From NCBI GenBank assembly GCA_977017645.1, contig OZ360234.1:20274001-20338000 (forward strand): a DNA stretch of 64,000 nt, given 5' to 3'. Numbering within the stretch: the stretch's first letter is position 1; every line of letters starts with the position of its first letter. The notes below the pieces were generated by a model, which was given only the letters and a program-made list of their open reading frames with translations, ran no database searches and had not been told where the DNA came from. The translations under genes and the position numbers were made by a program. Source of the DNA: Torpedo marmorata (lineage: Eukaryota). Positions 4,101 through 31,100 of this stretch are shown piece after piece.

Positions 4101-7100
4101 ATTTCTCCCTCTATTTTTGTCCCTTCAAAAGGAAATACCTAACCATCTAAGAGGGAATAATTTGAAGCGGTGTATCCAATAATTTCCAGACAAAGCATAC
4201 CTTTGTAAAACGCATTTGAAATTCTCTTAAATCTACCACGGACACAGAGTCAACAAACCTCACCCCTCAAATACTTGTGCGGTCTGATCTGGATTGAGAA
4301 TAAGGCAGGAATGGTAGCGCCGCAAGACTGCCACAATGCACAGGCACAAACCCGTTGTATAGCTGCCAACTAGACTGGATGACTTCAGGAGTAACTCTGC
4401 TTCTACTACACTTAATTCATTAAGTAACTGCAAAAAAAAAAATATATATCAAAATTAGCAAACAACATTGCCTTCCTAAAATATCATTAGAGATATGCCT
4501 TGACTAATTAACACAGCAATAACAATAGAATATTTACATCCCAGGGTCAAACTGCATGACTTCATGTGCACTATATAACTTATTCTATTCCACATAAAGA
4601 AAAACTCTTAAAATATTCACAGTGGCTCCATTTTATAAAAAAATGCATCTCAATTTGCAAATACATTCTCTTCTATGGAACTAAAACATACAAGGATTAA
4701 TTCACAACCAGCATAACTGGTGCCCATCTATTGGCCTCTTTAGCCTTCAGGTGCTGAGGGAGGGCTGCGGGAGCTGGAAAATATCAGGCACCTTATCTAT
4801 TCCTTATAGTTATTCCAGGAATGACATGATCAGGTCACAAACCAGTTTCCACTCAGTGAAGAACAGTCTGTTTAGCAGAACAAACTTGTTCATTTACTGT
4901 ACAGTACAACTCCCATTATCTGAAATCGGATTATCCGAAATTCTCAGTTATCCGAAAAATTTTTGGACCCGGAAATTACGTCACAAGTTGAAAAAGAAAA
5001 TTCACCCGACATGAAATTAGGACGACGATTGTCCTCGTTTCAGGTAACTCCCTCCCCCATCTCTTTCCATTTCTTCTTTACCTTCCCCTATTGACTTTTC
5101 TCTCCAACTCTCCCTCTCAAACTGCATGTCACTGTCTCCCAGCCGCAAGCGGTCGGAAGAATCCCTTGTCCCAGCGTCAAGGAGAGCAGCCTCCCGAGCA
5201 GGAGCGGGACCTCGGGCTCAGTGGCGTAGCCAGGTTTTGATGTTAGGGGGAGCGAGAGCACATAAAAAAGGCGCCGCGACCACAGTTGTGCGCGTGTGCG
5301 TGCGCACACTGCTTTTGCAACCAGCGCACAAAGCCTCCATGCCCTCCTCCTCTCTCCAACCCCTCCTCCACCCTCCCCGCCACTGCCCTCCTCTCTTCTC
5401 TCTCTCCCTCCTCTTCCCTCCCTCCTCTCCCCTCCCTCCTCTCCTCCCCCCTTCCCTCCTCTCCTCCCCCCTTCCCTCCTATCCCCTTCCCTCCCTCCCT
5501 AGCACACCGGAACTCCCAACGCCGAGTCCGAACCCTCCCATCGGACTCCCCAGTGTGCGGTAGGCCGAGGGGAGGGTTCGGAGTCGGGACTCAGGCATCG
5601 GAAGCTCCGGTGACCGGAGCTCCCGACGCCCAACTCCGAGTCCGAACCCTCCCCTCAGCCTACACCAGAGATCCCGACGCCAACTCCGAACCCTCCCCTC
5701 GGCCTACCGCACACGCACACCGGACGCGGCAAATGTCGTGGTCTCACAGTTCAAAAATATGCGGTGGGGGAGGGCCATGGGGTCGGGGGCGTTGCCGGGC
5801 TGAAAAGGCAGGGGGAGCTATCGCTCCCCCTGCTCCCCCACTAGCTATGACCCTGCTTGGGCTCCCGAGCAGGAGAGGGACCTCAGGCTCCCGGGCAGGA
5901 GCGGGACCTCGGTGGGGAGGTGTCGGTGATCGTCTGCAGCGGTTGGGAGGGGGAATGTGTGCAGGTGAAGACTGGGTCTGTGTCGGGCTCCAACATCGAG
6001 AACCAGGACGCGAAGCCGGAACAGCCCCTGCCGGAACGAGCCCACGGGGAGACAGGAGCTCGCCGACTCGCCAGTGAGTGTTCCACCGGCCCGGGAAGCC
6101 TCCCTGGAGATCGGCGGCAGCAGTGGGGACGTGTCGGGGATCGGCGGCGGCGGTTGGGAGGTCTCGGTGATCGGCGGCGGCGTTGGGGACGTGTCGGGGA
6201 TCGGCGGCGGCAAGCAATTTTTGGTGAGAATTAAATATTATTTTAATGCTTAAAAAGCCTTCCCTTGTTGTTTGTTGTTGTTTAAACATTGATATAAGTG
6301 ATTTGCTGTTGCTACTGGGCTGTTTTTAAAAAATGACCAGCTATCCGAAAAATTCAGTTATCCGACATAGGTCCGGTCCCAACCATTTCAGATAATCGGA
6401 GTTGTACTGTATGTACATCAAGTAGCAGTGAACCCTGGATGGCAAGCCATTTAGTAACTTAAGAAAAAGGAATGAGGCAAAAACAAGGTTAATCTAGTTT
6501 AACATACAAATAGATCATTTGAAGACCACAAAGGAAACATCGATTTGATTATCACTATTTGAGTTTAAGATGCATGAGAGGAAACAGATTATTACCTGAA
6601 TAGCAAAATCTATTAATCCACTGATATTAAGGGAATACTCCATCAGATCAAAAATAAACTGAATGTGCTGAACAAGAGGCAGATGATAGGACATTCCCAA
6701 GGCAAAACTAGTGATCTGTTCCAGCACATTGCGTGATACCTGTCATTTCAGGAGAAACAAGTTAACAAAATTATTAACATGACCTTATTGAATGATAGAA
6801 TTGGAGCAACATTCCAAATGGCTTATTCCAATTTTTGCTTCTTTTGATCTCAATTTTTTCTATGAAATATTTTCTCTCACATTGATAATAATCCACATAA
6901 GCAACCAAAAGATGCAATTATTAATCTCCAATTTTTTTTTTAGAAATTTAGAACCATTGATTATTTAAGGTTTTGCATCCAAAGATTTTTTTTTTTTTTT
7001 TTTTTTTTTTTTTTTTTTTTTAAAAGATGAAGCAATGCAAATTAATAACCCAGGATTGTAGTAAAGGGCACAATATGATTTAACGAAGCAGGAAAAGGGT

Positions 7101-28100: not shown

Positions 28101-31100
28101 GGCTGCAGCCGATGCTGAAGACTTGGACCCAGCACCATTTGGCATCTTCCCGGCCAGAAGCAAAGGTTTTTTTTTTAAACTGTTTTTTTTACTTGCTTAA
28201 TTTACAGATTTGTTACTTGGCGATAGGGGTGTTGTAACAAAGTTTGGGATGTTGCTGGGAGGCCTGGACACCAGGCCGGCACATTCCTTGCAGAAAATTG
28301 GGGGGTTGACTTATACGCCCGATATATGATAAAACCATGAAAATGGGGACTCGACTTATACGCCGAAATATATGTTATGTCCCAAAGTGCTTCACAGTTG
28401 CTACATCAATCTTTATACTATTGTTCTGGTACCAGAGAACAGAATCTCACATACTTGTTGGGTAAATGTGGAGTTTCCCCCTGGCATGGGTAGACTGGAT
28501 GGTGCTATGGGTAAAAGATCGAGTGGGGATCCAGTCTTATTTCTGCAATCAGTCAATGAGTAATGCCATACCAAAGCACTTGGACAACACAAAACAATAC
28601 TCTGAAAAACAAGTAGCCAAATGTCAGGCAGATAGCATATCACGTCTTTTGCAGGAAGCAGAGTTTTTCAATCATGGAACAAATACAAGGTTTAAATTTA
28701 CAATTTTCATGGAATTAAATTCTGTGTTTTTTTTCCCCTTCCTCTGGACTCCATTGGCACTGACAACCTGTTATTACATCATATATATCATTATTGTTCA
28801 TGAGCAAGGTCAGATGTTGAGCATCTACAGCCCATTGTGGAGACATCATGCCGAGTCTGATCCTCATCAGTTATGGCCAATGAACACCTTGCATCAGGAT
28901 TCATTAAATAACTGCCTCAGCTAAAATTCCTGTTGCAGATCTCATGCAACAATGATTTGGTTTACTATCCAATGATTACCCATATCTGCAATTTCCACTC
29001 TGATTGGTGAAGTGACGACATAATCTGTCTGCTCTTTATTCCTTAGCCAAGAGTAGCAAAAAAAAGTAACATTCTTGTAAAAAGGAAACTAACCTTTGAA
29101 GGAAAAGAAGATCAGATTATTATTTAAATGGTGAAAGATTGCAGTATGCTGTCGTGCAAAGGGACTTTGGGAGTGCTAAGACATGAATCACAAAAGGTTG
29201 GTTTGCAGGTGCAATAGTTAATCAAGAAATTAAATGGAATGTTGGCCTTCATTGCTGGAGGGATTGAATTTAAAAGCAGGGAAGTTCTTCAACTGTACGG
29301 AGTACTGGTGAGGCCGCACCTGAAGTATCGTATGTAGTTCTGGTCTCCTTACTTGAGGAAGATTATATTAGACTTGGAGGCGGTACAGAGGTTCACCAAG
29401 GCTGATTCCGAAAACGAGGGGTTTAGCCTAAGAGGAGATATTAAGTACTCTGGAAAAGAATGAGAGGGGATTTTATGAAAATATAAAATTATGAAAGGAA
29501 TAGATAAGACAGGAGCAGGAAAGTTCTTTCCAGTGGTTGGCAAGACCAAAACTAGGGGACATGGCCTCAAGATTCAGGGGGAGTAAATTTAAAATGGAGA
29601 TAAGGAGGAACTGCTTCTCCTAGAGTGTAACGAGTCTGTGGAATTCTCTGACCAAGGAAGCAGTGGAGGCTGCCACTAAATATATTTAACACTCAGGTCG
29701 ATAGGTTTTTTCATAGTAGGAGAATCAATGGTCATGGGGAAAAGGCAAGTAGGTAAAGCTGATTCCACAACCGGATCAGCTTTGATTTTACCAAATGGCA
29801 GAGCAGGCTCGATGGGTCAGGTGGCCTACTCCTGCTATTTCTCATGTACCTATTTATCCAAACATTTCTTAGCAAACAGAGAATAGAAGAGGTAATCGAG
29901 CCTCCTTAACCCTGGATATAAAGCAATTTCTGGAGTACTACTTGCAAGCACAATTACAGCAGCTAAGTCTGGAATCTAATCTTTTTTTTTGGTTTGTATG
30001 ATTTAATGCTGCTTCGAAGTTGCACTTCAGGACAGAGGCTCAATGGGCTTCATGAAATGTAATGATGAATTGCCTTTTTCTATCCAAAGATCAAGTATCT
30101 TAAACTTTTTAATTAGGAAAAAGATTCTTAACAGTGAAAATTAACAGATAATTAGCATAATTAAAGGCTGGATCAATTGCTGACCTACCTGAAGCATGCA
30201 ACTTAATCCAAACACTACTGGACGATGCTGTGGACAAATGTAAAAATCCATAAATGGAGATTGAGGCTGGGTGGCTCCATTGGGTGGTGGTGTTGGAGTT
30301 GGAGGCAAGGTATTTGCAGTGGGTGCTGGAATCACATGGGACTGATGCCCTCCTGTTACATTACTACCACTTTCACCTAGCAGCATAGAGAGACGTCGGG
30401 TACAGAAGTAGGCCAGACGTCTCGACAGATATGCAGATTGCACGAACTCTCCCGAGTACTAAACAGAAAGAAAAACAAATAAATTACAAATTTACGTCCT
30501 AAAGGATTCTCAATTTTTAGTAAATCAACAGTGATGCTCCACCACGAGAAAAGCTAACAATGTTGGATTAGCTGTGTTGAAATGTTACATTTCTACATGA
30601 TTAATCCAACATTATTAACATTATTTGTAAAGCAAAAACAAAACTGAACTTCAGATATAAAAACTGAAAATTTTAGGAATAATCAACAAGTGCAATACGA
30701 AGAGGGGAAGTTTGGAAGGAACAAAGTAAATGCTGGGCATATGGTGGAAACCAAGTTGTCAACATAACACAATTACATTTGCCACTATTGAAATGAGAGG
30801 AATGAATGCCAGTCAATCTGTCTATAGGAAGATGATCAAGGAAACTGAGAGAATAATATACAGGAACTATGAAATGTAAAACACTGGTGGCTACTGAAAC
30901 AAAAATAATGTTGGAAATAATCAGCTGGTCAGGCAGCAACTCTGGAGAGAAAAACTGAATTAATGTTACAGGTGTTTAATTTTGAATCAGAACTGGCCAG
31001 TTCTGACACAAAAAGAAACGGCTGGTTATCTAAAGGTCAACAAGAAAATCTGCAGATGCTGGGGTCGAGTGCAGTACACAAACGTGCTGGAGAAACTCAG

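Follow-up and report, generated by a model that had tools for sequence, protein, structure and literature searches.

The window analyzed here is a stretch of 64,000 nucleotides from the 6.2-Gb genome of the ray Torpedo marmorata (C47:20,274,001–20,338,000, forward strand), in which DNA transposons carrying copied pieces of two other host genes, MASTL and DMRT1, lie within the gene MED12. The surrounding gene, on the minus strand, was confirmed as MED12 by a protein match (E 1.9e-22); among the protein matches obtained, the best came from rays and sharks. Three pairs of terminal inverted repeats (TIRs) reported in an earlier note on this DNA were also found, at 4902–6409 (TA flanks), 8336–9112 (8-bp target site duplication (TSD) GTAGCGAG/GTAGCAAG) and 27654–28375 (TA), together with two hAT elements beyond that note, one at 7944–10690 enclosing 8336–9112 and one at 5219–5855 nested inside 4902–6409. 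The note had proposed that several transposon families capture CpG-rich 5' gene ends throughout the genome, and this was borne out, with at least 11 donor loci. It had named interiors empty of other host exons, or cargoes confined to single-copy events, as outcomes that would speak against it; other host exons are present in the interiors, and neither cargo in the window is single-copy. The features that bear on MASTL and DMRT1 are as follows:

6596..28606, minus strand: host MED12 exons around the insertions (6596–6737, 7246–7364, 12935–13084, 26206–26340, 27478–27577 and 28453–28606, among others), from the protein match and CT..AC joints
7944..10690, unstranded: outer Charlie-like hAT element, TIR CAGTGGTTCCCAAA, TSD ATTTAGAC, the carrier unit of this MASTL copy
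8336..9112, unstranded: inner hAT element, TIR CAGGGGCGTAGC, TSD GTAGCGAG, the TSD being common to all nested copies
8529..8994, minus strand: copied MASTL 5' region, with ≈100 bp from before the start codon, then coding exon 1 and ≈145 bp of intron 1
27654..28375, unstranded: pogo/Tc2-type non-autonomous element, TIR CCGTATATTTCGGCGTATAAG, TA TSD, inside an 875-bp MED12 intron; the site is empty in a relative
27853..27992, minus strand: 27-bp minisatellite derived from DMRT1 intron 1, by its match to the host intron
27986..28306, minus strand: copied DMRT1 5' untranslated region (UTR) and coding exon 1 to the middle of the DM domain; the copy has a frameshift and two deletions (21 and 44 bp)

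The assignment of 8529–8994 to MASTL held: its top match in the PDB was greatwall (E 1.8e-8), and it was 69–73% identical to shark MASTL. At the DNA level, 427 of 478 nucleotides (89% with gaps) matched a single host locus at C5:74.27 Mb, and exons 2–5 were found at high identity only at that locus (150 candidates scored). Pfam missed the MASTL exon and thus under-detects cargo. Host intron 1 starts with a GC donor (L065:4728–4740), which was kept in 21 of the 24 copies in which the site was located and lost in the window copy. All 29 other top MASTL copies sit within the same outer hAT element, always with the inner TSD GTAGCGAG, whereas 30 loci of the outer element gave 29 distinct flanks, and the TSDs matched in four of the five other copies for which both ends were available. 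Outer-element copies found by the element's own interior lacked the inner element in 6 of 11 cases. Because the inner TSD is shared, the outer flanks differ and some outer copies have no inner element, the MASTL nesting is a single event that was then amplified.

The best protein matches of the second cargo were to ray DMRT1, and its DNA matched host exon 1 at a single locus (C2:246.43 Mb), confirming the earlier identification; exon 2 was found at high identity only in the host gene (150 candidates scored). In the cargo, exon 1 is joined to the intron-1 minisatellite at a CGGCTC word that is present on both sides. The minisatellite in host intron 1 is 670 bp long, 86% GC (L074:7335–8007) and free of transposon ends; inside elements it expands independently, to more than 1 kb (L294, L356). 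An 18-mer spanning the DMRT1 start codon had 9,537 exact matches in the genome, mostly in the pogo family (reversed control, 0), and the TIR CCGTATATTTCGGCGTATAAG had 24,702. The first 30 of these TIR matches represented 22 elements. Ten of them carry DMRT1 cargo; the other 12 belong to a 2.1-kb type and are mostly 93–99% alike. One 2.1-kb element (G000:C1:7,572,670–7,574,776, L168/L169) has an intact open reading frame for a 445-amino acid pogo transposase with DDE_1, BrkDBD and HTH_Tnp_Tc5 domains, and this type possibly exists in thousands of recent copies. The TA TSD and a DDE_1/HTH_Tnp_Tc5 transposase between the same TIRs place the family in pogo (Tc1/mariner superfamily); the subfamily is putatively Tc2. 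A contig from the relative (run X15, record 13) joins 27650 to 28398, corresponding to the empty site; run X10, which has no coverage over the DMRT1 element, was left out. The cargo also has a 6-bp Gly–Val codon pair (window 28095–28110; L279–L302) that is missing from DMRT1 of this genome and of Narcine and present in three other rays; the capture may predate the Gly–Val deletion in the host, which might help in dating it.

The DMRT1 cargo occurs with more than one kind of transposon end. Among 30 loci with the DMRT1 motif, 26 had the pogo TIR, three lay in Charlie-like hAT ends and one in Tigger-like ends. A 44-bp deletion relative to the host was common to all seven cargoes that were aligned, from all three kinds of ends; a single DMRT1 capture has therefore passed through three TIR families, which belong to two superfamilies. 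Host DMRT1 was matched over the greatest length by a Charlie-like copy, and pogo copies carry an extra 21-bp deletion, which suggests, as judged from these alignments, that the relay ran from Charlie-like to pogo elements. Four of 30 copies of a second hAT family clustered together, and the two of them that were inspected contain a Charlie-like end with the minisatellite. The Tigger-like element in the window also holds derived DMRT1 minisatellite.

To survey other cargoes, we sampled 90 copies of the first hAT family, that of the inner element, and 30 copies of the second, and added one DM-domain protein search. An 8-bp TSD and a short TIR starting with CAG are the hallmark of hAT elements, and both were found. 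The inner end CAGGGGCGTAGC had 393 exact matches, and the 90 copies examined comprised 28 nested and 62 free ones. Among the 62 free copies, the cargo was MASTL in six, RCN1 in three (90% to ray RCN1), FKBP4 in two (a weak top match, E 0.0016), a kringle exon in two (by Pfam, with neurotrypsin as the best single-kringle match), TLR5 in one (E 8e-45), a piece of an actin-like gene in one, and in one a non-coding piece that maps to an intron 1 within a CpG island. The remainder comprised unnamed CpG-rich pieces, an AT-rich subfamily (10/62), transposase remnants or copies interrupted by retroelements, as judged from representative copies and from Pfam scans of 94 and 27 reading frames. TLR5 cargo is present in ≈40 copies, its donor having an intact frame of 881 amino acids, and FKBP4 cargo in a dozen or more, its donor locus not being identified. 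Copies in the FKBP4, TLR5 and other subfamilies have their own flanks. Dimer_Tnp_hAT transposase remnants were seen inside the same hAT ends in L115 and L120.

The DM-domain search gave 85 matches, and 20 of the 23 further loci examined were copies of exon 1 and intron 1 of a DMRTA-class gene, presumably DMRTA1, to judge by position. All 15 DMRTA copies checked sit in the second hAT family, each with its own TSDs and flanks. This family has 2,009 exact end matches; the 30 sampled copies formed 21 clusters, none with DMRTA cargo. It also carries the N-termini of ELL (E 7e-12; 41 of 79 frames scanned) and of a zf-HIT protein (E 6e-6), each followed by a donor-like site.

Some hAT copies show further rearrangement. 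In L307–L310, the intron-1 CpG-island piece is chained to the actin-like coding region, including its N-terminus, and in L232 (G000:C5:117,777,330–117,782,811) four hAT ends at 1.8-kb spacing form a tandem array of a cargo-bearing element. Start-codon or UTR pieces with donor sites from unnamed genes were seen at L082:3200–3360, L334, L335 and L223. In another subfamily (L255, L323–L332), only the last 50–60 bp of the MASTL cargo remain beside the end, together with a different, 1.1-kb CpG-rich interior. This is serial cargo replacement; the donor of the new interior was not among the loci retrieved.

The first (N-terminal) coding exon was the source in all eight named multi-exon donors. First-exon status relative to the host was shown for MASTL, DMRT1, DMRTA and RCN1; for the others it is suggested by start and donor sites. 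For RCN1, residues 1–86 turned up at 18 loci besides the gene, whereas matches to later exons were confined to RCN1 itself and its paralogues, with all 56 candidates having been scored. The TLR5 and actin-like pieces are long single-frame coding stretches, the TLR5 piece being internal. All five donors that were located are CpG-rich, with observed/expected (o/e) CpG ratios of 1.05, 0.83, 1.02, 0.83 and 0.75 against a background median of 0.43, and 35 of 300 background bins reached 0.75 or more. The CpG richness of the cargo itself was set aside as evidence, because o/e is close to 1 in young empty elements as well, and the donors were measured instead. Germline or cell-cycle expression, which the earlier note had seen as common to the donors, was not supported as the rule, TLR5 and the kringle gene also being donors; the common feature is CpG-rich DNA rather than germline expression. 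Nor does the presence of two cargoes in one window indicate a high rate of capture, as had been supposed: each goes back to one capture that was amplified many times, and since DMRT1 copies occur on average every 650 kb, the presence of one here is uninformative about the rate.

The copies are ≈95% identical to their donors, with CpG transitions 5–11 times faster than other transitions, and they decay about neutrally. Selection on the cargo was considered and rejected: raw ratios of nonsynonymous to synonymous changes (pN/pS) below 1 vanished when CpG sites and changes common to several copies were excluded, leaving observed and expected values of 40 and 40.1 for MASTL, 49 and 50.2 for TLR5, and 79 and 88.7 for DMRTA (p 0.04, one of three tests). 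Unbroken DMRTA copies numbered 3 of 20. The fast loss of CpG likewise led us to reject, for the average copy, the idea that CpG-island cargo shields copies from methylation.

Taken together, we consider it likely that non-autonomous hAT and pogo-type transposons carry DNA copies of CpG-rich host 5' ends at few to about ten thousand sites, probably acquired by template switching in repair and probably handed between TIR families by nesting or re-copying. A break inside an element, or its excision, would be repaired; repair would switch template onto host 5' DNA and copy it into the element; the cargo-bearing element would then spread by ordinary transposition, and its cargo could pass to another TIR family by nesting or re-copying. 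The repair step, the cause of the CpG bias and the direction of the relay are what we infer from these patterns; the bias might come from open, unmethylated germline DNA serving as template or from better spread of such cargo. The host loci that the cargo matches are intact, single-copy and located on other contigs. Intron 1 is retained in the MASTL, DMRT1 and DMRTA cargoes, upstream DNA is also among the copied sequence, and the cargoes are therefore DNA copies, not retrocopies. At none of the five donors fetched was any of seven TIR motifs found near the copied stretch. Several junctions show a short shared word, namely CCAA where pogo meets DMRT1, CTGC and CGGCTC at deletions within the cargo, and GAGCT at the TLR5 border. 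The structure thus has the features of Pack-TIR and Pack-TYPE elements, namely TIRs with a TSD, an unflanked donor locus, retained introns, and distinct TSDs with empty sites. Template switching, as put forward in the earlier note, fits the junctions, the donors without TIRs and the retained introns; this is agreement rather than demonstration.

Several observations weigh against this interpretation. The shared words are only 4–6 bp long and were chosen by eye, with no null model, and no shared word was seen at the MASTL right end, the L124 ends or the TLR5 right end. Loss of an allele in which flanking elements had cut would leave clean donors too, and nesting, directly visible here, could account for the relay without template switching. 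A donor was named or mapped for 16 of the 62 free hAT copies, most interiors being unnamed, and naming a cargo required a recognizable protein, which may favor exons. The samples count copies, so that capture bias and amplification bias are mixed, and the TLR5 cargo, internal to one long exon, suggests that the bias is maybe for CpG-rich DNA and not for 5' position.

An alternative is aberrant transposition, in which elements insert in open 5' regions or in one another, the outer ends of two neighbors mobilize the intervening DNA, and the inner ends are deleted later; this is the transduplication model of Pack-CACTA elements. Nested composites in the window do amplify as units, ends of one family are found inside another, and cargoes are chained and serially replaced. 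The five donors without nearby TIRs speak against it, as do most primary cargoes, which join the element without a leftover inner TIR. We consider it unlikely overall, with aberrant transposition of paired or nested elements probably explaining part of the relay. Somewhat less doubtful is that capture was unbiased and only promoter or CpG-island cargo reaches high copy number, making samples look 5'-biased: copy numbers range from 6 to more than 9,500, the AT-rich subfamily is large (10/62), and in bats, Helitrons that carry 5' cargo attain higher copy numbers (PMC4224331). Low-copy cargoes (6, ≈40 and 18 copies), however, also come from CpG-rich or first-exon DNA, and the copies are not kept unmethylated, given CpG transitions 5–11 times faster.

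That two or three chance captures were amplified without any general system would agree with the 22 sampled pogo elements, which had only DMRT1 cargo or transposase, and with the mostly empty Tigger-like family. The 11 or more donor loci, most of them from the 120 sampled hAT copies, refute chance capture for the hAT families and make it very improbable as a general account. Hardly credible, finally, is that the cargoes arose by retrocopying or segmental duplication and gained flanking TIRs afterwards, or that they are artefacts of assembly. A few loci are duplicated with shared flanks (L006/L008, L336/L337), and L232 is a tandem array, but retrocopy and duplication are refuted by the retained intron and upstream DNA and by TSDs that differ between copies, and an independent run from the relative holds the same cargo many times as well as the empty site.

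Capture of host DNA by transposons is known from other systems, which we compare here. Pack-MULEs are recognized by Mutator ends, long TIRs and TSDs of 9–11 bp; the TSDs here are 8 bp or TA, so that the ray elements fall outside this class, although their behavior is Pack-MULE-like. They resemble rice Pack-MULEs and plant Pack-TYPE elements in being multicopy, with GC-rich donors and chained loci, and differ in the lack of any observed Mutator element, in the vertebrate host and in the far higher copy number of single cargoes (PMC5861414, PMC8903248). The donors in rice and other plants are described there as open, lowly methylated chromatin, and Pack-hAT and Pack-Mariner elements are known from maize and rice (PMC5861414, PMC8903248). 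For animal Pack-TIRs, the published survey describes 370 cases in 100 genomes, of which four are multicopy, the example shown having three copies, with donors mostly nearby (Tan et al. 2021, PMC8277862). The ray elements share with these hAT and Tc1/mariner ends around host DNA and breakpoint microhomology, the multicopy cases likewise taking GC-rich, distant donors; unlike them, the named cargoes of the ray are all multicopy, up to more than 9,500, and cross superfamilies. The word "shark" is absent from the main text of PMC8277862. Bat Helitrons are similar in their vertebrate host, their bias to promoter, 5' UTR, first exon and first intron, their thousands of copies and their serial capture (Thomas et al. 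2014, PMC4224331). Those are rolling-circle elements, whereas the ray elements are of the cut-and-paste type, belong to two superfamilies and have the TIRs and TSDs that Helitrons lack.

Among the open-access papers listed (subscription papers, repeat databases and supplements lying outside this scope), no report of such capture in cartilaginous fishes or of a cross-superfamily relay was found, and the Squalomix preprint, by term search, and a 2026 plant review had nothing on it in the parts consulted. The scale and the relay between superfamilies thus appear to be new relative to known Pack-TIR and Pack-MULE systems; mechanism and function we infer. Plant-style multicopy capture by cut-and-paste transposons is described as nearly absent in animals (4 of 370 multicopy). 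Many captures with intact donors, an intact transposase and empty sites make it possible to test, in a vertebrate, how Pack elements take up DNA and why GC-rich 5' ends are the source. Partial DMRT1 duplicates became sex-determining genes elsewhere (PMC9250109), and for this reason the two DM-domain donor genes matter. As a speculation that we rate as rather improbable, 5' modules moving between hAT and pogo would form an exchange network. The DMRT1 starts, some ten thousand in number, and the many complete DMRTA DM-domain exons would in turn influence how gonadal genes are controlled, through small-RNA cross-talk, factor decoys or new DM-domain genes, as a source of new sex-determining or chimeric genes. 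The copies will in any case complicate the annotation of genes, the mapping of reads and the design of sex markers for this lineage.

The remaining features near the insertions are these:

4902..6409, unstranded: non-autonomous Tigger/pogo-like element with TIR CAGTACAACTCC and TA flanks, present in many copies, of which some have the nested hAT and others do not; 1,133 exact TIR matches
5219..5855, unstranded: nested hAT of the CAGTGGCGTAGC type, 8-bp TSD CTCGGGCT/CTTGGGCT, with a GC-rich repeat interior and no named host cargo
5856..5912, plus strand: two DMRT1 intron-1 minisatellite units of the transposon-derived form, a second-hand cargo; part of another unit lies just before 5219
5945..6110, unstranded: CpG-rich exon-like cargo, donor not found (356 DNA-search candidates)
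9113..10500, plus strand: cargo of the outer hAT element, putatively the 5' part of a long terminal repeat (LTR) retroelement, interrupted by stops

Tigger-like is a putative label, taken from the TA flanks and the TIR. For 5945–6110, all 11 best other loci were copies of the 4902–6409 element, and there was no Pfam match. The CAGTACAACTCC family, which had been listed among the capturing families, did not prove to be a first-hand capturer: 16 of 22 sampled elements were without GC-rich cargo, and part of the cargo is second-hand. The retroviral origin suggested for 9113–10500 survives as a putative label, based on a motif resembling an LTR end and primer site; Pfam and Atlas searches gave no usable match, and a donor for 9640–10200 was not among the loci retrieved (879 DNA-search candidates; neither this figure nor the 356 above is a copy number).

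The MASTL and DMRT1 cargoes both lie sense to MED12, on the minus strand, as the earlier note had stated, but the significance it attached to this was not upheld (two of two, chance 0.25). In contig sets that may derive from RNA, MED12 is spliced past both insertions, and the matches listed include none that links the MASTL donor site to MED12; we draw no conclusion from this. Elsewhere in the window, a near-perfect 99-bp palindrome at 14657–14893 consists of two head-to-head copies of a common repeat, and three related 3' ends resembling those of long interspersed elements, 66–94% alike, lie within 5 kb at 50957–55994.

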